A stretch of 64,000 nt of DNA, from NCBI GenBank assembly GCA_030674475.1, contig JAUSCZ010000017.1, forward strand, positions 46,264 through 110,263, written 5' to 3'. The notes beneath the pieces are model-generated. The model did no database searches. It was not told the DNA's origin and saw only the letters and a list, made by a program, of their open reading frames with translations. The position numbers and the translations under genes are program-made. Below are positions 38,172 to 58,145 of the stretch, piece by piece. Position 1 is the first letter of the stretch, and every line of letters starts with the position of its first letter. This DNA comes from Candidatus Omnitrophota bacterium. Lineage in GTDB: Bacteria; Omnitrophota; Gorgyraeia; Gygaellales; UBA12090.

Positions 38172-38528
38172 TTACGGCGAAGTTTCAACATTCTGATAAG
38201 CTAATAACATAGTCTTATATGTTTCCAACTCCTCTTTGAGCCTTTCGTATTCGCGGGTTTTCCAGTCAAGGAACTGCTGGATAAGCTGAAATTTTATCCT
38301 AATTCCCTGAGGGGTGAGCAGATACATATAGCTTAACTTATTCTTGGCATTCTTGAAGTTTTTTGCCTCTATTATGCCCTTGTCAATGAGGGCGTTGAGG
38401 AAGTAGTTAATCTTGCCCAGGCTTATTTTGAGTTTCAGGGCCAGGTCGCGCTGGGTTATGGCGGGATTTTGCTCTAACTCTTTGATAACAGAGAGGATTT
38501 TTTCGTGGTGCAATATGTCGGATTTCAT
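38172..38528 (-). CDS. MarR-type winged-helix transcriptional regulator (EPS-locus-associated family), copy 1
   Basis: MKSDILHHEKILSVIKELEQNPAITQRDLALKLKISLGKINYFLNALIDKGII is the wHTH. The true start is cat at 38526-38528, and the longer ORF-track start is an extension. 90% identical to copy 2. Confidence 0.65.
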   Translation of the reverse strand: MKSDILHHEKILSVIKELEQNPAITQRDLALKLKISLGKINYFLNALIDKGIIEAKNFKNAKNKLSYMYLLTPQGIRIKFQLIQQFLDWKTREYERLKEELETYKTMLLAYQNVETSP

Positions 38529-38574
38529 AGAAAAACTATGGGTCGATGGTCTATGGTTCATCTTTTTAAAATTC

Positions 38575-39221: not shown

Positions 39222-39330
39222 ATTTTGCTCTAACTCTTTGATAACAGAGAGGATTTTTTCGTGGTTTAAGATGTCGGATTTCATGGGAAAATCAAAGGTC
39301 GATAGTTTATAGTCAATAGTCAATGGTCCG
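39222..39330. repeat. Cassette-junction repeat, copy (partial: regulator-5'-end homologue + heptamer tract, no hairpin)
   Basis: ttttgctctaactctttgataacagagaggatttt...atgtcggatttcat followed by gtcgatagtttatagtcaatagtcaatggtcc. Homologous to 38440-38565, 39923-40106, 42530-42665, 46133-46262 and 47168-47305. Confidence 0.7.
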
Positions 39331-39431
39331 GAAAAAAATTACTTCTTTAAATAATTTCGAAAGGCGTGCAGCATTTTTGAGATGTCTTCACAACACTTAT
39401 AAAATAAATCAAATTCTGTAGATTTTCTGTG

Positions 39432-39907: not shown

Positions 39908-40054
39908 TTAAACGATTTTATCCTTGTAAGTGCGATAAATCGCACCGCTACCGCGAATTTTCCGAATAAGTTTGCGCTGGGTTATAGCGGGGTTTTGCTC
40001 TAACTCTTTGATAGCAGAGAGGATCTTGTCGTGGTTTAATATGTCGGTCTTCAT
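39908..40054 (-). CDS. Truncated divergent paralogue of the MarR-EPS regulator (~48-aa mini-ORF) embedded in junction repeat
   Basis: MKTDILNHDKILSAIKELEQNPAITQRKLIRKIRGSGAIYRTYKDKIV. The first ~30 aa match the regulator N-terminus. The divergent tail LIRKIRGSGAIYRTYK is shared with the copies at 46133-46262 and 47168-47305. Confidence 0.4.
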   Translation of the reverse strand: MKTDILNHDKILSAIKELEQNPAITQRKLIRKIRGSGAIYRTYKDKIV

Positions 40055-40106
40055 GGGAAAATCAAGGGTCGATAGTCTATAGTCGATAGTCAATAGTCAA
40101 TGGTCC
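39923..40106. repeat. Cassette-junction repeat, full copy (hairpin GTGCGATAAATCGCAC + regulator-5' homologue + (GTCNATR)5)
   Basis: The hairpin at 39930-39945 has a 6-bp stem and a TAAA loop. Then comes cgctaccgcgaattttccgaataagtttgcgctgggtta..ttttgctctaactctttgata.cagagaggat. Then the heptamer tract gtcgata gtctata gtcgata gtcaata gtcaatg. Confidence 0.7.
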
Positions 40107-40173
40107 AGAAAAAAATTACTTCTTTAAATAATTCCGAAAGGCATGTAGCATTTTTGAGATGTCTTCGTAACGC

Positions 40174-40473
40174 TTATAAAAAAATGCCTTTAATTTTGTT
40201 TTTGGTTCCCGCTTTAGCGGGATAACACAGGCTAATATTGATCTTTTCATATAATGTTTCAGGGGCAATGTCAGCGCCATTTGGCCAGGCAATTGTACCG
40301 CCTTCAATTTTTGCTTTTTTGAAGAATTGTAAATTCTTTAATGGCTTAAAAATATATCCTTTCCTAATGTACTCTATAAAATTCACATCTCCACCTTTAC
40401 CATCATCAAACATAATATAATAAACATAATTATTTTTATACTTAATTGTTTTTACTTCATTCATATCCCACAT
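40174..40473 (-). CDS. DUF2442 family protein (second copy)
   Basis: [17 protein letters not shown]-terminal motif. Confidence 0.55.
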
Positions 40474-41845: not shown

Positions 41846-42130
41846 TTATTTCCTAATCGTCCAAAAATCAGCAGCTTGGGTTTCTAAATATTCGTAGGGC
41901 ATAGTGAAGTAGCCGCATTTACCCCAAGTCTTGCCCCAGGAATTTCGGATTAAGAAACATTTTTGTTTTTGGTTGTATCCGACTGCTAACACCGCATGTC
42001 CGCCCACCGGCCGTTCATTCTTTTTAGGCATAGGGACAATGCCGGTGCGTTTGACTTTTTCGCTCTCAAAGGATTCATAAACTGTAAAACCGAAGGTAAA
42101 AGGATAACCATCTGCCAGACAAACGAGCAT
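41846..42130 (-). pseudogene. Papain-like (C1) cysteine peptidase, C-terminal fragment
   Basis: GGHAVLAVGY...IRNSWGKTWGKCGYFTMPYEY carries the His/Asn half of the catalytic triad. The N-terminal Cys-containing half is absent. Confidence 0.55.
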
Positions 42131-42149: not shown

Positions 42150-42245
42150 CTTCTCCATAATTCTTCCTGTTGTTTCTCCATTAATTTTCCTATCTCATCA
42201 CTATGGTCATAATAACAAGAAAGGGCATCGTAACTTACGTAATCT
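42150..42245 (-). pseudogene. DUF433 gene remnant (C-terminal fragment)
   Basis: Minus-strand translation YVSYDALSCYYDHSDEIGKLMEKQQEELWRR* aligns to the C-terminus of the DUF433 protein at 46815-47153 (SAIYDALSYYYDHADEIERLMEKNREDQWKK). Confidence 0.4.
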
Positions 42246-42628
42246 TAGTACGTTGCGTCCACATTGCTTAATTTAGGTAAAACTTCGGCATTTTGATAAG
42301 CTAATAACATGCTCCTGTAGGTTTCCATTTCTACCTCAAGCCTTTCGTATTCGCGGGTTTTCCAGTCAAGGAACTGCTGGATAAGCTGAAATTTTATCCG
42401 GATTCCCTCTGGCGTTAACATATACATATAGCTCAACTTATTCTTGGCATTCTTGAAGTTTTTGGCCTCTATTATACCCTTGTCAATGAGGGCGTTGAGG
42501 AAGTAGTTAATCTTGCCCAGGCTTATTTTGAGCTTCAGGGCCAGGTCGCGCTGGGTTATGATGGGGTTTTGCTCTAATTCTTTGATAACAGAGAGGATTT
42601 TTTCGTGGTTTAATATGTCGGGTTTCAT
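42245..42628 (-). CDS. MarR-type winged-helix transcriptional regulator (EPS-locus-associated family), copy 2
   Basis: MKPDILNHEKILSVIKELEQNPIITQRDLALKLKISLGKINYFLNALIDKGII...; near-identical to copy 1. Confidence 0.65.
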   Translation of the reverse strand: MKPDILNHEKILSVIKELEQNPIITQRDLALKLKISLGKINYFLNALIDKGIIEAKNFKNAKNKLSYMYMLTPEGIRIKFQLIQQFLDWKTREYERLEVEMETYRSMLLAYQNAEVLPKLSNVDATY

Positions 42629-42694
42629 AGAAAAACTATGGGTCGATAGTCGATGGTTCAGGAACCGTTTTTTAAGAATTTTCGCGCGAATTTG

Positions 42695-43673: not shown

Positions 43674-44519
43674 TTATCGTTTGACAAAATTTTCCAGAAA
43701 TCCGATAATTTTTGGATAAAGAGGCAAGGCCTCTTGAATAAACTTCTCTAAGCGGCCGTAAAGAATCTCCAAATACTCATGGGCAAGGATATTTCTTAAA
43801 TTAGCGAACTTGGACAGCCCTCTTGCTTCTGTTTCGCTTAAACCCGCTAAAAATCCGAAATTAAACAGCGCCTCTTCATAAGTCCGCGGCATTAGCTTTT
43901 TCTCGGAAGCTAAGGTTATTTTAGCGATGTCTATAGTAGCGTTGAGAATATTCTCTGCCCATCTTTCAATGCTACGCCTTTTCATTTTGTCTTTCTGATA
44001 ATCGTCAAAAGTCACCATTTGACAGCTGGGAGTCTCTTTAATCTCTAAATCTAAAAATTGCAGCCTTACTAACAATCTTTCCTTTTGCTCCACGGTAAGC
44101 GACCGGGCTTGCTTATAAATCCGATAAAAATCTTCAGAAAATTCCAAGAAATCTTCTGTTTCCGTGCTCGCCTTTAAATAAGTTTCCAAGTGCAATCTTT
44201 CATCCTTAATCACTAAAGGAATTCCAGTCTTAATTACGCAGGAAACTAAAGACGCCGGCGCGTAATTTAAACAAACCAAATCAATATCTTTATGAATAAT
44301 CCCGGAAATATCCGAGTAAACTTCACTTTCATTTTCATAATAAATTTTATTTTCCGGAGCTTCTGACTTTTGAGGCACGAAATAAACCGCTACATCAAAA
44401 TCTGATTCCGCCGTCTGCCGGCCTTCGGAATAAGAACCAAAAACAAAAGCCATTAAAACTTCTTTTCTTTTTAGAAAATACTCTTTTAATGATTCTATTG
44501 TATCTTTTAAATTATCCAT
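43674..44519 (-). CDS. Fused nucleotidyltransferase (MNT) - HEPN (DUF86/HepT-like) protein
   Basis: N-terminus FGSYSEGRQTAESDFDVAV (MNT); C-terminus LRNILAHEY (R-x4-H HEPN motif). 281 aa in one polypeptide. Confidence 0.6.
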   Translation of the reverse strand: MDNLKDTIESLKEYFLKRKEVLMAFVFGSYSEGRQTAESDFDVAVYFVPQKSEAPENKIYYENESEVYSDISGIIHKDIDLVCLNYAPASLVSCVIKTGIPLVIKDERLHLETYLKASTETEDFLEFSEDFYRIYKQARSLTVEQKERLLVRLQFLDLEIKETPSCQMVTFDDYQKDKMKRRSIERWAENILNATIDIAKITLASEKKLMPRTYEEALFNFGFLAGLSETEARGLSKFANLRNILAHEYLEILYGRLEKFIQEALPLYPKIIGFLENFVKR

Positions 44520-44595
44520 TTTGAAATGTCTTCACAGCGCTTATAAAGCAAATCGGGCACAGGGAGAATCGCTGGTTAAAAGTGCAGCTTCAACA

Positions 44596-44826: not shown

Positions 44827-45092
44827 TTTATTTTACCTCCGCGATTTGTACCAATAGTGCCTATGGAATTAAAGAAAATACCTGGTAAGCCGCAAAGCAC
44901 TTGTTCTTCTTTATTAGGGTACTGGGGTTTTCTGTCGGGATAATACAAATTCTTCCCTTTTAGGGAATTTTCTTGCTAAGGCGTATGTCTGGATTGCCCG
45001 GTCAAGCCGGGCAATGACAAAAGTGGAGTTTCACGACAGTCCCCTGACTCATTCCATACCTTTAGTTCCTCAAATTTAAAGGGCATAGGATA

Positions 45093-45130
45093 GTCGATGG
45101 TCTATGGTCTATGGTCTATGGTCTATGGTT
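45093..45130. repeat. Heptanucleotide tandem repeat (GTCNATR)5-6
   Basis: gtcgatg gtctatg gtctatg gtctatg gtctatg gttta. The same unit occurs in 2-5 copies directly upstream of each regulator/mini-ORF start (38541-38562, 39298-39329, 40064-40106, 42641-42660, 46248-46262). Confidence 0.8.
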
Positions 45131-46000: not shown

Positions 46001-46132
46001 GCTTTGATACTGGTTAGTTCTACTCTGGGCGTTGGAGGATTAATTGCCTTTCATCAGTTAAACCCAAAGTCCTGCTAACAACGGTCTGACATCTTCGTCA
46101 AGATAAAGCTTTACTTCTTCCACGGCTCTTCC

Positions 46133-46262
46133 TTGTAAGTGCGATAAATCGCACCGCTACCGCGAATTTTCCGAATAAGTTTGCGCTGGGTTAGGGCGGG
46201 GTTTTGCTCTAACTCTTTGATAACAGAGAGGATTTTCATAGAAAAACTATGGGTCGATGGCC
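46133..46262. repeat. Cassette-junction repeat copy (hairpin + regulator-5' homologue, internal deletion, 2 heptamers)
   Basis: The hairpin gtgcgataaatcgcac at 46139-46154 is followed by cgctaccgcgaattttccgaataagtttgcgctgggttagggcggggttttgctctaactctttgataacagagaggatttt, then cat and gggtcgatgg. It encodes the mini-ORF MKILSVIKELEQNPALTQRKLIRKIRGSGAIYRTYKEEPWKK. Confidence 0.7.
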
Positions 46263-46524: not shown

Positions 46525-46833
46525 TCATCTCCTTGTTCTATAATCTGATTGAAAATGATCTAAATCCGGTCTATATGCGGTAACGATAAAACAGTATGTG
46601 CCCTCTGAATCAAAAGCTGCAACCACATGAAACGGCTCTTCTCTAATCCATCCCAAGAATAAAGCGCTTGGATACGGTTTATTGTGAGGGTAATCCTCTA
46701 TAATTTCTCCTGACAATAACACTTTCTTAACTGTATCCCGGAAAATTTCTCTTTCCGCCATTCTCTCAAGAGCATGTCTTTGCCATTCTATTCTACCATT
46801 TATTATCGCTATACTTAATTTTTCTCTATCCAT
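46525..46833 (-). CDS. DUF4258 family protein (putative toxin)
   Basis: WQRHALERMAEREI...EDYPHNKPYPSALFLG...FIVTAYRPD pattern. Confidence 0.55.
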   Translation of the reverse strand: MDREKLSIAIINGRIEWQRHALERMAEREIFRDTVKKVLLSGEIIEDYPHNKPYPSALFLGWIREEPFHVVAAFDSEGTYCFIVTAYRPDLDHFQSDYRTRR

Positions 46834-47153
46834 CTATATTTTCCGGGAAAAATACCTGGTAAGCCGCAAAACACTTGTTCTTTCTTCTTCCACTGATCTT
46901 CCCTGTTCTTCTCCATTAATCTTTCGATTTCATCAGCGTGATCGTAGTAATAAGAAAGGGCGTCATAAATGGCGGATAAAGAAAGATGCGGAAATTCCCT
47001 AGCTAATTCCTCAGGGAGAATTCCCTCTTTGACTATGTAAAATACAACAGACCGGACAGGAAAACGGGTGCCCTTAATTATAGGCTCCCCTCCCTGAATC
47101 CTCGGATTGTGTGTTATATAATAATGATTTACTTTCTCTATAACCTCGCTCAT
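46815..47153 (-). CDS. DUF433 family protein
   Basis: IQGGEPIIKGTRFPV motif. Confidence 0.65.
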   Translation of the reverse strand: MSEVIEKVNHYYITHNPRIQGGEPIIKGTRFPVRSVVFYIVKEGILPEELAREFPHLSLSAIYDALSYYYDHADEIERLMEKNREDQWKKKEQVFCGLPGIFPGKYRWIEKN

Positions 47154-47167
47154 TATGTCACCTCCTG

Positions 47168-47305
47168 GTGAGTGCGATAAATCGCATCGCTACCGCGGAT
47201 TTTCCGAATAAGTTTGCGCTGGGTTAGGGCGGGGTTTTGCTCTAACTCTTTGATAACAGAGAGGATTTTATCGTGGTTCAATATGCCGATTTTATGAATA
47301 TTCAT
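47168..47305. repeat. Cassette-junction repeat copy (hairpin variant + regulator-5' homologue, no heptamers)
   Basis: gtgcgataaatcgcatcgctaccgcggattttccgaataagtttgcgctgggttagggcggggttttgctctaactctttgataacagagaggatttt...; the mini-ORF ends in ...LIRKIRGSDAIYRTH. Confidence 0.7.
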
Positions 47306-47363
47306 CTGTTCAGGGCTTGAACATATATTAACAAAAGTATCGCAATTGTCAAGAGGAGAGTCT

Positions 47364-48470: not shown

Positions 48471-48488
48471 GGTGCGATAAATCGCACC
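48471..48488. repeat. Isolated copy of junction hairpin GGTGCGATAAATCGCACC
   Basis: 7-bp stem and TAAA loop, 19 bp upstream of the GT28 start. The following ~20 bp (gctacgcgacgcgaa) are only loosely related to the junction repeat. Confidence 0.6.
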
Positions 48489-48615
48489 GCTACGCGACGC
48501 GAATAACCCAGCACTATTTTCATGCTCATTGGTATCCTGCTTTCGGCGGGGTATAACTGCTTCATTAGTTATTGATTTTTATAAATAATAATACTGGCCA
48601 TGCTCCTGGGGGGAC

Positions 48616-54430: not shown

Positions 54431-55924
54431 CTAGCGCTCTCTCATATAATCATCATCAAATCTCTTGATGTCGTCTTCTTCTAAGTAATCTCCGGTTTGG
54501 ATTTCTACAATCTTAAGCGGGGTGCGGGCGGGATTTTCCAAGCGGTGCTTTGTTCCTTTGGGAATGTATATACTTTGGTTACTATGGACATAGATAATAT
54601 CCTTACCTCGACTCACCTTGGCACAGCCGGAAACCACTACCCAATGCTCCGCTCTCCTGGTGTGAGCCTGCAGGCTGAGCCGTTTTTTGGGTTCTATCTC
54701 AATCAGCTTGATTTTAAAACCAAGAGCCTGTTTTAAAACCGTAAAGAAGCCCCAGGGACGCCTATCCGTCAGATGCATAATATGCTCTTTGCGGTGGGCG
54801 GATTTCAGTTGCTCCACGATTTTCTTGACCTCCTGGGTCTTTTGTTTATCGCAGACCAATAAAGCGTCAGGGGTATCGGCGATAATCAAATCCTTCAGTC
54901 CGATGGTCGCGATAAACCGGTCTCCCCGGCTAAAGGCGCAAACCCCCTGACTGCCGCAATCCAGAGAATTATCGGGAAGCACATTGCCGCTTTTGTCCTT
55001 GTGTAGTAATTCCTCTAAGGCATCCCAACTGCCCAAATCCGACCAATAAAAGTCAGCCGGCACCAGGGCTATTTTCTTAGAATGTTCCATTATGCCGTAA
55101 TCCACGGAAACCGGCTTGATTTTACCCCAGACCTTTTCTATGTCGTCTTTGGTTTGGATTGACTTTAGCTGGGAATAAAGCTCCGGCATATATTTGGCCA
55201 ATTCATCCCTAAAAACCGAAACCTTCCAAATAAACATCCCGCTATTCCAAAAATAATCTCTACTCCTTACATATTCTTCCGCTTTGTTTAAACTCGGCTT
55301 CTCCAGAAACTTTTGCACCTTGAAACTCTTTAAAAAGTCATTGCGAGGAGCGTAGCGACGAAGCAATCTCCCAGGGGATTGCTTCGCACTTCGTGCTCGC
55401 AATGACGGATCAAGCTGATGCTCTACTTTTATATACCCATATCCGGTTGCCGGCTTATTCGGCTTGATCCCGATAGTTACCAGAAAATCGCTTTCCGCGC
55501 ACTTTAGCGCCCGGTTAACACAACCCTGAAATTTTTTTATGTCCTTAATATAGTGGTCAGCGGGAAATACCGCTAAAACCGCGTCTTTATTTTTTTGTTC
55601 AATCAGGCGCGCGCATAGGCCGATAGCCGGAGCGGTATTTTTACCTTGCGGCTCCAGGATAATATTCTCATCCGGTATGTGGAATTTTTCTATCTGTTTC
55701 TTAAGCTCAAAGAAATAGGCCTGATTGGTGATAAAAAATATCCGCTTTGGCCGAATCAGGCCTTCTAAGCGCTTGACTGTATTCTGAAGCAGGCTTTCCT
55801 TGCCGATAATATTGATAAACTGCTTCGGCTCAAGCTCCCGGCTAAAAGGCCAAAAACGGCTGCCTACCCCGCCGGCTAAAATCAAGCCGTATAAGTTATC
55901 CTGAGAACGCTTTTCTGATGCCAT
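54431..55924 (-). CDS. Mannose-1-phosphate guanylyltransferase / mannose-6-phosphate isomerase (ManC/CpsB-like) with ~20-aa insertion
   Basis: LILAGGVGSRFWP N-terminus and a cupin C-terminus. An extra segment, DPSLRARSAKQSPGRLLRRYAPRNDF, lies between GYGYIKVE and KFLEKP. Confidence 0.8.
   Translation of the reverse strand: MASEKRSQDNLYGLILAGGVGSRFWPFSRELEPKQFINIIGKESLLQNTVKRLEGLIRPKRIFFITNQAYFFELKKQIEKFHIPDENIILEPQGKNTAPAIGLCARLIEQKNKDAVLAVFPADHYIKDIKKFQGCVNRALKCAESDFLVTIGIKPNKPATGYGYIKVEHQLDPSLRARSAKQSPGRLLRRYAPRNDFLKSFKVQKFLEKPSLNKAEEYVRSRDYFWNSGMFIWKVSVFRDELAKYMPELYSQLKSIQTKDDIEKVWGKIKPVSVDYGIMEHSKKIALVPADFYWSDLGSWDALEELLHKDKSGNVLPDNSLDCGSQGVCAFSRGDRFIATIGLKDLIIADTPDALLVCDKQKTQEVKKIVEQLKSAHRKEHIMHLTDRRPWGFFTVLKQALGFKIKLIEIEPKKRLSLQAHTRRAEHWVVVSGCAKVSRGKDIIYVHSNQSIYIPKGTKHRLENPARTPLKIVEIQTGDYLEEDDIKRFDDDYMRER
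55338..55407. repeat. ~70-bp imperfect palindrome inserted in-frame within ManC-like CDS
   Basis: tcattgcgaggagcgtagcgacgaagcaatc-tcccaggg-gattgcttcgcacttcgtgctcgcaatga. The outer 10 bp are perfect and the inner arms imperfect. Confidence 0.7.
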
Positions 55925-58145
55925 TTAACACCTCATCCACTTTAATATTCTCAATACGGTCACTTTCAATTACTATATGTTTATCCCCCACCGGACCCCA
56001 TCTTTTAGCGCGGACCGCGGGCGGACTTTTACGAAAAATTGCCACAACCTGAATTCCTAATGCGGCGGCTAAATGCATCGGTCCGGAGTCAACCGTAACT
56101 AACAATCTACTCCTTTTTAACAAACCGGACAGTTCAAGTAAGCTTGTTTTTCCGGTTAAATTAATTACCGGCAAACCCTGGCAGAATTCGCCGGACCTTA
56201 TGGCTTCTTCCCGGCCGCCGATCAACACAAGCCTATATGCTGTCTCACGCGATAATCTGACACATAGATCCCTGAATTTATCCCTTGTCAGCTCTTTTTC
56301 CGGATTGCTTGACCAGGGATGGATAGCAATGAAATTATTATCGCTTATTCCTAATTCAGCTAATCGGTTATCTGGGAAGTCTGATTGTTTTATTTCTAAA
56401 GTAAAACCGTTGTTACCCAAATCATACACCTCCGAGGAGCAGAAAACTGCACCTCGGAGGTGAAGGTTCGATACGGCCTTCAGCAGTTCAAGGTTATAGT
56501 CAACTTCGTGTTTTAGCCCCAGTTCTTTAATGTCTTTTGTCTTACGATTCAGCAGAAAACCCCATTTTCGGTCGTAACCCGCGCGAATAGGGACACCGGA
56601 CAAAAAACTTATCATGTTGAATTCCTGGGAAGGATTAAAAGCTACAGACAGGTCATAACGGCCACCCTTAAGCTCTTGGCTGAATTTTAATATTTCCTTT
56701 AGTCTATGTTTTCTATTCTCCCAAACTATCAGCCTGTTTATAAAGGTTATACGCTCTGCTATGGGCAAGACATTTTTATCAACCACTAAATCTAATTTGA
56801 CCTCAGGATAACTTTGTTTCAATGCGCGTAACGCGGGGATAGTGAGCAAAAACTCTCCGAATCGGTCATTCCTAAATGCCAGGATGTTGTTTGTTCCCAT
56901 GAGTAGGGGCGGGTTCGAACCCGCCCCTACCTTTAGTGCTAATGACAGTCCGGCAATATACCAAAACATCACCGCGACTACCGAATAGTAAAGACTGCTT
57001 TCAGTGAGGCCGTTAACTAAAAAGGCGATCAAACAGGCAATCAAGGAGAGCGAAACCGTTTTAAGGTAACTATCGCCGGTTGAACGATAAATATTCTTAG
57101 ATTCCCTAAACAACCAATAAAGAAACCAGAAGAATATCACCAGGCCGGTCAAGCCTATTTCTCCGGCCATATGCAGATAGTTATTATGCGCCTTCATTTC
57201 ATTCAGGGTAATTATGCCGCGGTATTCGGGAAACTCTTTATACTTTTTATAGCTTTTCATGAAGGTATTGGCCCCGACGCCGATTAAAGGATGGGCTTTG
57301 ATCATATTCAAAGAATGCAGATAGACCGCGATCCGGTCGTCGTTACACATAAAGCGTAAGGGGTTATATTCAACTTCTTTGGCCCACTCTTTCACCGATT
57401 TTGGCATAAGAAACGGCGATACAAGCGTAAATATTAGTAAAAGTAAAAGCAGTGCCTTGCTCTTTTTGGCCAAGCCAAAAAACAATAAGACCATATATAC
57501 CGCCAGCAAGGTAGGCCGAGAGTAGGTCAAGGCAATTCCAATTAACACTAAAAGGCTTATAAAAAAGACAGAAATCTTTTTTATCCCTCTAAAATAATAA
57601 AGCCCCAACCCTAGAATCAGAGGAACTATAGCGCTTAAATAAATCCCCAGGATATTGGCGTCCTTAAAGGAAGCCGTGGCCCTAAGCAGGCCAATATTCA
57701 AAATCGGCTGATACCCCCGGATAAAATCCCGGCCGGTTATTACCTGAAAAATCCCGTTAGAAGAGGCCAAAACCGCGCCCAAAATCAAGGCCCATAAAAT
57801 CTTATTTATTTGAGCCTTATCTTTTACCTCCTCTTTAACGATATAAAAGATAAAGATATATTGCGCTAATCTGAATATACCGCCTTTTAATGTGTCATAA
57901 AGGCTTACCGAATTAATCGCGGATAAGCAGGTGATGATAAAGAAAAACAGTAACGGGATGTTTACCGGATCGCCCCTAAACAACCGTTCTCTGATTAAGA
58001 GTTTCTTAAACAAGAAGGCGGCGATTAAAAATCCCATGAATACATTCATCGGGGCCGGAGCAATGGCAATGGAAAAAGGCAATAAAATCACGCACCAGGA
58101 CAATATCCCATCTAGGATTTTTATTAATCTATCTTTGGGAGGCAT
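55896..58145 (-). CDS. Fusion protein: O-antigen ligase/polymerase-like (Wzy_C) membrane domain + C-terminal GT9 heptosyltransferase-like domain
   Basis: The N-terminal ~420 aa are polytopic. The C-terminal ~330 aa carry GT9 features (LTIPALRALK..., VTVDSGPMHLAAALG). Confidence 0.6.
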   Translation of the reverse strand: MPPKDRLIKILDGILSWCVILLPFSIAIAPAPMNVFMGFLIAAFLFKKLLIRERLFRGDPVNIPLLFFFIITCLSAINSVSLYDTLKGGIFRLAQYIFIFYIVKEEVKDKAQINKILWALILGAVLASSNGIFQVITGRDFIRGYQPILNIGLLRATASFKDANILGIYLSAIVPLILGLGLYYFRGIKKISVFFISLLVLIGIALTYSRPTLLAVYMVLLFFGLAKKSKALLLLLLIFTLVSPFLMPKSVKEWAKEVEYNPLRFMCNDDRIAVYLHSLNMIKAHPLIGVGANTFMKSYKKYKEFPEYRGIITLNEMKAHNNYLHMAGEIGLTGLVIFFWFLYWLFRESKNIYRSTGDSYLKTVSLSLIACLIAFLVNGLTESSLYYSVVAVMFWYIAGLSLALKVGAGSNPPLLMGTNNILAFRNDRFGEFLLTIPALRALKQSYPEVKLDLVVDKNVLPIAERITFINRLIVWENRKHRLKEILKFSQELKGGRYDLSVAFNPSQEFNMISFLSGVPIRAGYDRKWGFLLNRKTKDIKELGLKHEVDYNLELLKAVSNLHLRGAVFCSSEVYDLGNNGFTLEIKQSDFPDNRLAELGISDNNFIAIHPWSSNPEKELTRDKFRDLCVRLSRETAYRLVLIGGREEAIRSGEFCQGLPVINLTGKTSLLELSGLLKRSRLLVTVDSGPMHLAAALGIQVVAIFRKSPPAVRAKRWGPVGDKHIVIESDRIENIKVDEVLNGIRKAFSG
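56903..56930. repeat. Perfect 28-bp palindrome gtaggggcgggttcgaacccgcccctac inside CDS at the domain junction
   Basis: Self-complementary over all 28 nt; encodes ...VGAGSNPPLLMG... between the ligase-like and GT9 domains. Confidence 0.8.

Follow-up and report, generated by a model that had tools for sequence, protein, structure and literature searches.

Why do several small defence-type genes in the genome of a Candidatus Omnitrophota bacterium stand behind the same short sequence, one that joins a hairpin to the 5' end of a transcriptional regulator gene? This question is raised by a 64,000-nt stretch of contig JAUSCZ010000017.1 (assembly GCA_030674475.1, positions 46,264 to 110,263 of the forward strand), here called the window, in whose own coordinates all positions are given and in which every gene lies on the minus strand. 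A preliminary description of the sequence had recognised, near 40 kb, a junction element that consists of a hairpin, a homologue of the 5' end of MarR-type regulator genes associated with exopolysaccharide (EPS) synthesis, and a tract of tandem heptamers, and that encodes a truncated mini-open reading frame (mini-ORF) with a tail shared by further copies. The element had been taken for a distinct repeat family with its own promoter/operator-like tract, such as a recombination site or a mobile promoter cassette would have. All of these parts were located as described, far above chance. Our results point to a different origin: we consider it probable that the element is a chimeric junction between a stub of the regulator gene and a repetitive extragenic palindrome (REP), which formed once, was copied by recombination between direct repeats and probably serves as a leader for the genes behind it (the cargo), and that it is not an autonomous unit.

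Anatomy of the junction copies

An alignment of the six 5'-region copies in the window, evaluated as identities by segment, showed that the 54-nt regulator core is 89-100% identical among two intact regulator genes (reg1 and reg2) and three truncated copies (mini1, mini2 and mini3). The next 55 nt, which follow CAGCGC and are here called the tail, are 89-96% identical between the three mini copies and only ~46-50% identical to the intact genes with gaps allowed, a level too weak to decide on an origin of the tail from a diverged allele. The tail is thus closer among the mini-ORFs than to either intact regulator, as had been proposed, and together with the hairpin it is a distinct sequence common to the mini copies, which are not merely decayed copies of the resident regulator. 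We also considered the tail as a diverged regulator allele and rejected this, as no intact homologue among the matches listed reads LIRKIR after TQR, nor contains the sequence encoded by the 22-nt pre-tail at this point; all of them read [DEA]LA[LQ]KL..SLGK there.

The tail comprises the pre-tail, the hairpin unit and a Shine-Dalgarno (SD) sequence. The hairpin lies inside the mini-ORF and encodes G-A-I-Y-R-T within the shared ending ...QRKLIRKIRGSGAIYRTYK, as is seen in the ORF translations, and CTTACAAGGAGG, directly after the hairpin unit, is the SD sequence of the first cargo gene. Homology among the mini copies stops at this 3' flank, 5-10 nt ahead of cargo start codons that differ from copy to copy. 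In mini3 the native promoter and codons 1-33 of the regulator are retained, followed by the tail with its hairpin, the SD sequence and the cargo; its stop codon overlaps the ATG of a DUF433 gene at 47153, and the intact gene lies 9 kb downstream. At mini2, the sequence continues into a DUF5615-like gene remnant and then an AbiEi-like (DUF6922)/AbiEii pair. On the opposite side of the element, the stretch upstream of the mini1 heptamers, which mini1 shares with a further stub at 39.3 kb, contains a remnant of the 5' end of an NTase-HepT (nucleotidyltransferase-HepT) gene (cf. 44519-44584). Because this shared sequence holds the first NTase-HepT codons, the duplicated unit must have been excised from a larger arrangement, and the 5' border of the repeat is ragged.

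Three findings in the window went beyond the earlier description, namely a stand-alone hairpin at 48472, a regulator stub at 39223-39328 and a lone heptamer tract at 45090-45130. The 39.3-kb stub has an earlier breakpoint (Core position 53), is without tail or hairpin and is joined straight to a gene pair encoding a 76-aa protein and an aspartyl protease. With Core for the shared 5' part of the regulator and Rest for what follows it in the intact genes, the order in the direction of transcription is: hairpin, glycosyltransferase gene, [type-B promoter-Core-tail], cargo, [heptamers-Core'-tail], cargo, heptamers alone, cargo, [heptamers-Core-Rest = reg2], cargo, [heptamers-Core-tail = mini1], cargo, [Core 1-53], cargo, [heptamers-Core-Rest = reg1], and then the EPS genes. 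The tail is present in only 3 of ~12 window cassettes. Since the hairpin, the regulator part and the heptamer tract are separable, the element interpretation was right in part: the distinct shared tail and hairpin stand, and the single unit of promoter, operator and hairpin does not.

Two palindromic features of the Core were observed in addition. On the plus strand it reads CTCTTTGATAACAGAGAG and then GATTTTTT, a terminator-like hairpin antisense to the regulator, at 38478-38495, 39234-39251, 46213-46230 and 47246-47263 (4 of 6 Core copies); mini1 has a variant of it, reg2 is not among the copies listed, and the hairpin is not kept in the SIFKEL alleles of the related contigs L109 and L110. 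The Core palindrome CTCTCTGTTATCAAAGAG was considered as an operator or crossover site and rejected, since it is not retained in these same alleles.

The hairpin belongs to a large family of GTAG-tagged REP sequences

The palindrome GTGCGATAAATCGCAC, at 39930-39945 in mini1, has exact copies at 46139 and 48472 and a copy with a single mismatch at 47172. It gave 8 strand-matches in the window against 0.48 expected, and 0 of 100 shuffled sequences gave as many. The folding energy of the 33-nt hairpin piece was -6 to -7.6 kcal/mol for DNA and -8.3 to -11.8 kcal/mol for RNA (z of about -2.2 to -3.3); for the mini3 variant, with its mismatched stem, z was -1.1 to -1.5. The whole 231-nt element, folded as RNA, had no unusual structure relative to shuffled sequences (z = +0.56), and searches of Rfam with the whole window at the gathering threshold and with 38-49 kb at E<=1 returned nothing relevant. 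An intrinsic terminator was rejected, as the hairpin is followed by CTTACAAGG and no T-run and is not listed by a terminator scan.

To place the hairpin in a wider context, we scanned genomes, one per species, with the pattern GTAGCGRTGCGATTTATCGCAC, which recovered at least 106 stretches (L001-L106). The exact 22-mer GTAGCGGTGCGATTTATCGCAC was present in at least 106 stretches from metagenome-assembled genomes (MAGs) with ~13 lineage labels (Omnitrophota, Ratteibacteria, Sumerlaeota, Clostridia, Desantisbacteria, WOR-3, Planctomycetota, Zixibacteria, Edwardsbacteria, Elusimicrobia, Stahlbacteria, Aerophobetes and Vermiphilus), in flanks that are unrelated, and several MAGs contributed at least 7-10 loci each for this single stem variant. 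GTAGCG is found as the tag ahead of the stem in each of the four window copies and 112 times in the loci listed, to which the following counts also refer. Inverted partners with the same head and loop and another stem, e.g. GTCGGATGAATCCGACCGCTAC or GTGGCATAAATGCCACCGCTAC, are frequent. Among other GTAGCGG heads, 59 of 110 have an in-register 7-bp stem with a 2-nt loop, and their stems use 13 different central triplets, each matched by its complement; for control heptamers, in-register stems were seen in 0 of 134, 0 of 138 and 1 of 67 cases. This unselected count is the unbiased test, while compensatory changes, which predominate at three stem positions, come from a set that had been pre-filtered for pairing. 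An asymmetry between G-T and A-C stem mismatches was not used, because the filter let wobble pairs in and the count is therefore biased. Stems are 7-8 bp long and loops read TT or TC.

Crude ORF calling placed 89 of 112 copies between genes, and the upstream gene shares the strand of the repeat in 66 cases, against 16 with the opposite orientation. Most of the family adjoins housekeeping genes, e.g. those for glycyl-tRNA synthetase, ArgJ, glutamine synthetase and aconitase, with no regulator part. One locus (L103:3220-3819) encodes a REP-associated tyrosine transposase (RAYT)-type Y1_Tnp protein (YRRKLPHWE...VVMPEHVHLIL; 27.9 bits against a cut-off of 23) 63 nt from a doublet of the repeat, and two weaker Y1_Tnp relatives lie 0.8-2 kb from a copy, in L049 and L074. 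Among the families listed for the window ORFs scanned (one listing gives 25 of 73 families), Y1_Tnp does not appear. A collection of 2.9 million viral contigs contained neither the 22-mer nor the tail, and a viral origin was rejected on these grounds.

The hairpin is thus a member of a large GTAG-REP family. Published GTAG REPs have an unpaired GTAG tag, 6-13-bp stems and 2-3-nt loops that are often TY, form sub-families with complementary stem residues and head-to-head or tail-to-tail dimers, lie downstream of co-directional genes and sometimes within genes, and many are suggested to be transcribed and may act as RNA elements (PMC3733652). The copies described here agree with GTAG REPs and their RAYT proteins (Di Nocera 2013, PMC3733652; Nunvar 2010, PMC2817692) in the unpaired tag ahead of the stem, the 7-8-bp stem with its 2-nt TY loop, the sub-families distinguished by complementary stem changes, the occurrence of head-to-head and tail-to-tail doublets and of clusters, the Y1_Tnp gene beside one doublet, and a mostly intergenic siting, downstream of or between co-directional genes, with some copies inside ORFs. 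They differ in that many of the known families are specific to a species or genus, whereas an identical 22-mer is found here under ~13 lineage labels, and in that three copies are fused to a gene stub and read as coding sequence.

Several observations concern this and other palindromic repeats. The letter-for-letter sharing of GTAGCGGTGCGATTTATCGCAC across ~13 lineage labels is unusual for a REP family. A Ratteibacteria MAG carries a tandem array of the unit with 8-nt spacers and a 30-nt period (L002:293-404), and at L103:3134-3900 the Y1_Tnp gene lies between the GTAGCGG doublet and a different repeated hairpin, CAGGCAGGGATGCCTGTG, of which there are three copies. Within the window, the ManC-like gene 54431-55924 contains the palindrome GTAGCGACGAAGCAATCTCCCAGGGGATTGCTTCG (55352-55386) at the place of a 20-residue gap relative to L121 and a diverged stretch (...RARSAKQSPGRLLRRYAPRNDF...), and the window protein is 22 aa longer; the palindrome is most readily read as an intragenic palindromic-repeat insertion that preserves the reading frame. 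A perfect palindrome, GTAGGGGCGGGTTCGAACCCGCCCCTAC, at 56903-56930, is situated in the 749-aa ORF 55896-58145 between its Wzy_C and Glyco_transf_9 domains, the counterparts of which are two genes 37 nt apart in L121, and it seems to be an intergenic REP that became part of a fused ORF by read-through.

The regulator part is the stub of a gene split by insertion

The corresponding empty site is present in L121 (213 kb) and L122 (51 kb), contigs of related Omnitrophota from a different groundwater site; it is backed by several independent contigs, and its regulator is 86% identical. Its order is HAD phosphatase, REP (GTAGCGGCGCGATTTATCGCGCC), a monogalactosyldiacylglycerol (MGDG)-synthase-like glycosyltransferase, 71 nt, an intact regulator gene that begins MNNHKKDILNHENILFVIKELEQNPAITQRDLAQKLKVSLGKINYF (MNNHKKDIL...), and EPS genes. 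The REP of the empty site is the orthologue of the stand-alone window copy at 48472, from which it differs by a compensated pair (T-A to C-G), and the 71-nt spacer holds TTGACA-N17-TAAAAT and the palindrome TGTTCA-N5-TGAACA directly before the ATG. Our comparison showed that mini3, which follows the same glycosyltransferase gene, has a like promoter, the same palindrome and a like start (MNIHK...), and that its collinearity with the empty site extends to CAGCGC; beyond this point the empty site continues like reg1 and mini3 runs into the tail. The intact succession in the relatives shows that the regulator part comes from the native 5' end of a gene which an insertion has split, and is a stub of this regulator gene.

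The palindrome TGTTCA-N5-TGAACA, situated between the -10 box and the ATG in the window (47306-47355), was also observed in other contigs and is conserved in four lineages, including L109, L111 and L121; it is probably an operator for autoregulation. For the two intact regulators of the window, scores against the TIGR04176 MarR_EPS model were 121.5 bits (reg1) and 117.9 bits (reg2), with a cut-off of 88, and the nearest database relatives of both are annotated as MarR family EPS-associated regulators of Candidatus Omnitrophota. An identical-protein look-up of reg2 and of P0023 returned no record. reg1, which heads the EPS genes, is apparently the displaced functional copy of the regulator.

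The same junction in relatives and the positions of breakpoints

A protein search with mini-ORF 1 returned only seven clusters (P0001-P0007), all of them mini-ORFs of 47-71 aa with the same QRKLIRKIRGSG junction. The tail pattern was found in three JGI metagenome contigs and in 0 of the 106 listed REP loci of other lineages, none of which has the pre-tail AAACTTATTCGGAAAATTCGCG. The contigs that bear the junction all come from close relatives, with ~82-88% identity to the window across the flanking genes and a different cargo or cargo order. Thus, the hairpin is conserved at the homologous junctions of relatives and, as the wider search described above showed, recurs at many other loci; the similarity of the mini-ORFs is therefore not explained by a recent tandem duplication that left the hairpin confined to these copies.

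Other stubs in these relatives end elsewhere. Breakpoints were located at about Core position 25 (L118, L116), directly after the Core (L116 7040-7288, ...ITQRG|HLWRRV), at about Rest position 25 (L116 6526-6657) and at Rest position 57, the last in the native type-B copy of L119, which is followed by a Zeta-toxin gene. Together with Core position 53 in the window, stub breakpoints fall at five or more different positions. Cargo has also been inserted outside the regulator gene: in L116 it separates the glycosyltransferase gene from the native promoter, and in L111 it is found upstream of that promoter. The idea of one discrete family or recombination site is not borne out by these results: the hairpin and the heptamers occur apart from each other, the border is ragged, there are at least five breakpoints, and no recombinase or transposase domain was found in domain scans of the window island ORFs or among the genes listed for L119.

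In L110 (368-441), a second palindrome, GCCTGCCTACCGCAGGCAGGC, was observed within the REP stem of a mini copy, which makes the two nested palindromic repeats.

Heptamer tracts

Matches to the heptamer pattern GACYATNGACYAT numbered 15 in the window against 0.46 expected, and the mini1 tract was also found by TRF. The heptamers form the 5' region of all non-native (type A) regulator copies, with ~2 to 6 units depending on the copy; besides the tracts of mini1 and of the AbiEii border, they occur at 38546-38558, 39298-39328 and 42646-42658. The number of units differs between mini2 of the window and its L110 counterpart, and heptamers without regulator sequence are found at cassette borders in every strain examined. 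A promoter and leader role of the element is plausible, as it directly precedes cargo genes with an SD sequence, but a consensus scan called no sigma-70-like promoter in the heptamer tract.

Beyond the window, period 7 is the commonest short tandem period in the 106 listed loci (89 arrays, compared with 20 of period 6 and 50 of period 8). Of the period-7 arrays with at least 2.8 copies, 17 of 58 (29%) lie within 60 nt of a REP-family hairpin, as do 15 of 280 arrays of other periods; only ~3.4% of the sequence of these loci is within ~80 nt of a REP hairpin, and the proximity of period-7 arrays is ~9 times that expected. The units are apparently lineage-specific, CTATACG/TAGCGTA across loci from Clostridia-labelled MAGs and GACYATN here.

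The short tandemly repeated repetitive (STRR) heptamers of cyanobacteria are comparable. Likewise, 7-bp repeats lie upstream of hmw1A and hmw2A in Haemophilus influenzae (PMC8262952, PMC12721329). The tracts described here resemble these two cases in the placement of tandem 7-nt units between an upstream gene and a start codon, in a unit number that varies between paralogous copies (~2 to 6) and between strains, and in a dispersed, lineage-specific unit; they differ in standing also alone at cassette borders and, in other lineages, near REP hairpins.

The mini-ORF peptide

The stub encoded by the mini-ORFs is without the recognition helix, the wing and the C-terminal helix of the regulator, and a search of the mini-ORF against hidden Markov models (HMMs), including TIGR04176, gave no hit. 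mini2 is without codons 2-9, one copy in L116 consists of the tail alone, and L110-type copies, owing to the insertion of GCCTGCCTACCGCAGGCAGGC in the REP, have a different C-terminus that extends into a DUF433 remnant. The mini-ORF protein is not maintained; conservation is seen at the level of the DNA, from the core across the tail as far as CTTACAAGGAGG. The stop codon of the mini-ORF overlaps the cargo start codon (TAATG) in mini3, L107 and L109. In the 24-codon core the proportion of synonymous differences (pS) reaches 0.5 and that of non-synonymous differences (pN) is ~0.1, an excess that can be inherited from intact genes or imported by gene conversion. The use of pN/pS as evidence of selection was rejected, as 24 codons yield too few differences to tell selection on the stub apart from gene conversion. 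The protein is best read as an incidental by-product.

Proposed origin of the element and alternative explanations

From the arrangement of these sequences we infer a course of recombination and a role in expression as follows. In the ancestral state, the MarR-EPS regulator would have stood directly after the MGDG-synthase-like glycosyltransferase, with its own sigma-70-type promoter and TGTTCA-N5-TGAACA. In the groundwater Omnitrophota lineage, toxin-antitoxin and defence cargo may then have accumulated in and around the 5' part of the regulator, so that the native promoter and codons 1-33 remained as a stub (mini3), and one illegitimate event would have joined the regulator after codon 33 (...TQR) to the REP-headed 5' region of a cargo operon, giving the succession seen in mini3, namely ...TQR, 22 nt, the GTAG-tagged REP and the SD sequence of the cargo. 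An intact regulator with a different, heptamer-bearing 5' region is now found downstream. Recombination could have acted on the direct repeats that the regulator 5' end forms (70-250 bp, 89-100% identical), and unequal crossing-over, or loop-out and Campbell-type re-insertion, may have generated the further junction copies (mini1, mini2 and those of relatives) and reshuffled the cassettes between strains. The stubs would supply the cargo with read-through transcription, translation and a ribosome-binding site, and a recognisable promoter would come from mini3 only. A leader role for the cargo is plausible, because the SD sequence follows directly after the REP and stop-start overlaps occur in mini3, L107 and L109. 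The REP itself would be an ordinary hairpin of the transcript or of single-stranded DNA, which by analogy may stabilise or delimit the mRNA and may be a preferred point of rearrangement, and the heptamer tract would be a slippage-prone simple repeat in the 5' untranslated region.

Several points weigh against this proposal. The tail (pre-tail, REP and SD sequence) is near-invariant between strains, while the core differs at up to ~50% of synonymous sites, which suggests that the tail is under constraint or has spread recently; a passive scar leaves the invariance unexplained. Nor does a scar account for the 22-nt pre-tail, which is matched in no listed intact homologue. The same cut (QR|K) stands before at least four different cargo genes, as would also be expected from a site-specific process. 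In addition, intact type-A regulators (MKPDIL...) are common in the database, so type A may be an old paralogue and not a surrogate 5' end. Finally, the comparison sequences are all metagenome assemblies, as the window itself probably is, and since repeats of 130-250 bp can mis-join assemblies, some of the differences in cassette order could be artefacts.

Among the alternatives, a rather unlikely one is that the element is a cis-regulatory leader, in which a translated upstream ORF lets ribosomes melt the REP and TAATG coupling sets the ratio of antitoxin to toxin or the stability of the mRNA. The siting of the hairpin in the ORF, 10-20 nt before its stop codon, would suit such a leader, as would the SD sequence and stop-start overlap kept in mini3, L107 and L109, the near-invariance of the tail, the strong bias of REPs towards the strand of the upstream gene (66 to 16), and the published suggestion that transcription of GTAG REPs is frequent and that they may be RNA elements (PMC3733652). 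However, the element as a whole has neither a structural signal as RNA nor an Rfam match, the distance from stop to next start is 17 nt in mini1 and exceeds 100 nt in mini2, which leaves no coupling there, and the integrity of the ORF is not conserved.

A dedicated recombination site or mobile promoter cassette, at which a recombinase acting in trans or an HUH enzyme would insert cassettes at a fixed point of the regulator with the subterminal hairpin as recognition element, in the manner of IS200/IS605 ends or integron attC sites, we regard as unlikely. It would explain why the cut at CAGCGC is identical in the three window copies and in relatives before different cargo, and why the tail is better conserved than the adjoining coding sequence. 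The hairpin lies ~28 nt from the junction, a spacing that resembles the left-end geometry of IS200/IS605 elements, and in another MAG a Y1_Tnp gene stands beside the same REP. Against it stand the lack of a recombinase or transposase domain in the island ORFs and among the listed L119 genes, the restriction of the tail to 3 of ~12 cassettes, none with a matching hairpin at its other end, the ragged 5' border, the at least five other breakpoints, the cargo upstream of the native promoter in L116 and L111, and the fact that the same hairpin adjoins housekeeping genes in many lineages. The specific form of an IS200/IS605-like unit with hairpins at both ends was rejected, as no second hairpin is present at the far end of any cassette.

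We likewise hold it improbable that the locus is a cassette-capture platform, integron-like though without a dedicated integrase, in which toxin-antitoxin and defence cassettes would be looped out and re-inserted, either by recombination between the Core repeats or by a RAYT-like enzyme at the GTAG hairpin, with cargo expressed from the regulator promoter. A function of the 47-50-aa truncated winged-helix peptide as a small protein, e.g. an anti-regulator or antitoxin-like factor, is very improbable: ORFs of 47 aa are called in several metagenomes and synonymous exceed non-synonymous differences in the 24-codon core, but this excess is explicable by inheritance or gene conversion from intact genes, the peptide is without its DNA-recognition parts and any HMM hit, its N-terminus is deleted in mini2 and in the L116 copy, and its C-terminus is rewritten in L110-type copies.

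Setting of the element in the window

The region 38.1-48.5 kb is a hypervariable island of small genes of toxin-antitoxin or defence type inside a large polysaccharide/lipopolysaccharide (LPS) gene cluster. Domain searches identified Asp_protease_2, DUF4160/DUF2442, HEPN/NTase, a Polbeta-HepT fusion, two DUF433 genes, AbiEii with a DUF6922-like partner, and DUF4258 with a YgiT zinc-finger protein; a PIN gene is paired with a gene for a 76-aa partner without a Pfam hit. The features of the junction copies and of the other regulator and repeat copies are collected in Table 1.

Table 1. Regulator, junction, heptamer and REP features of the island, in window coordinates
Feature	Position	Strand	Content
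Intact regulator reg1	gene 38172-38525, copy with heptamers to 38557	-	heads EPS genes; heptamers, Core and Rest
Further regulator stub	39223-39328, shared upstream to 39407	-	heptamers 39298-39328, Core 1-53 at 39223-39275
Mini-ORF 1	39908-40054, or to 40093 from upstream TTG	-	48 aa: MKTDILNHDKILSAIKELEQNPAITQRKLIRKIRGSGAIYRTYKDKIV
mini1 3' flank CTTACAAGG(A)	39921-39929	-	common to mini copies; reads CTTACAAGGAGG in mini3 and relatives
mini1 REP unit GTAGCGGTGCGATTTATCGCAC	39930-39951	-	tag GTAGCG, 7-bp stem, TT loop
mini1 pre-tail AAACTTATTCGGAAAATTCGCG	39952-39973	-	codes KLIRKIR; lineage-specific
mini1 regulator stub	39974-40054	-	start codon 40052-40054 and codons 1-27; includes 72-nt Core 39974-40045
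Heptamer tract (GACYATN)n	40065-40105	-	~6 units; type-A 5' region of non-native regulator copies
mini1 upstream stretch	40106-40184	-	common only to 39329-39407 of the further stub; 90% repeat
Intact regulator reg2	gene 42245-42628, copy to 42657	-	mid-island; DUF433 remnant and peptidase-C1 fragment follow
Lone heptamer tract	45090-45130	-	directly after AbiEii stop codon; no regulator sequence
Mini-ORF 2	46111-46239	-	from ORF list
Copy mini2	46130-46258	-	short heptamer region, Core without codons 2-9, tail, REP 46139-46160
Mini-ORF 3	47153-47305	-	from ORF list
Copy mini3	47161-47355	-	type-B promoter TTGACA-16-TAATAT, palindrome TGTTCA-N5-TGAACA, MNIHK..., Core, tail, REP variant 47172-47193
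Stand-alone REP copy 4	48472-48493	-	between HAD phosphatase and glycosyltransferase genes; no regulator part

Further traces of rearrangement were observed in the island. DUF433 remnants at 42162-42233 and 44875-44915 are 75% and 90% identical, respectively, to the DUF433 gene 46815-47153, and both are apparently additional rearrangement scars. The peptidase-C1 ORF downstream of reg2 (41846-42130) is a fragment, and in L119 (10386-11126) an intact 246-aa peptidase C1 gene overlaps the stop codon of the regulator; on account of this overlap, regulator and peptidase C1 may be a conserved pair. After the lone heptamer tract, 44990-45090 holds an ATG and MPFKFEELKVW, presumably akin to the N-terminus of four-helix-bundle proteins, and then a palindrome with a 9-bp stem, ATTGCCCGGCTTGACCGGGCAAT, which looks like another kind of dispersed hairpin repeat.

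Comparison with known systems and biological meaning

The island has features in common with three kinds of known system. As in islands that integrate at gene ends, there are relatives with an empty site, the cargo is bordered by the native 5' part on its upstream side and by a complete gene on its downstream side, and several direct repeats of the target, the Core, flank and subdivide an island whose cargo differs by strain. Unlike such islands, which grow by tandem accretion at one att site, no integrase was found here, the breakpoints are not fixed, the repeats are 70-250 bp long with ragged ends, and cargo also lies outside the gene. Integron arrays and clusters of attC sites lacking integron-integrases (CALINs) share the co-oriented, promoter-poor cassettes with many toxin-antitoxin pairs, the repeated element that separates them and the promoter at the head of the array. 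However, the locus has no IntI and no attC-type long imperfect palindrome of ~60-140 bp at the cassette 3' end but only a palindrome of 16-18 bp, and its repeat is derived from a gene, stands on the 5' side of cassettes and is present in some of them only. With the orphan toxin-immunity arrays of rhs and cdi loci, it has in common modules preceded by a conserved piece of an upstream gene, shuffling between strains and no need of a dedicated recombinase; the piece that is kept is here the 5' end of the gene with its 5' region, in contrast to the 3' end of a toxin gene, and no new fusion protein would arise. Altogether, the feature belongs to known kinds, namely a GTAG REP, the stub of a target gene at the border of an island and a simple repeat of heptamers, and is not a new type of mobile element.

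These results carry a caution, in that ORFs which contain a REP can be mistaken for small proteins or recombination sites. They also offer two leads across phyla, a REP that is identical under ~13 lineage labels and tracts of 7-nt units that lie near REP hairpins ~9 times as often as expected. A cassette-capture platform, if true, would link the turnover of defence genes to the control of envelope polysaccharide. For the organism itself, the empty site makes known the states before and after the growth of a toxin-antitoxin island inside a regulatory gene of an uncultivated phylum, in the course of which stubs of that gene would keep promoter and ribosome-binding signals ahead of the cargo as the island grows.

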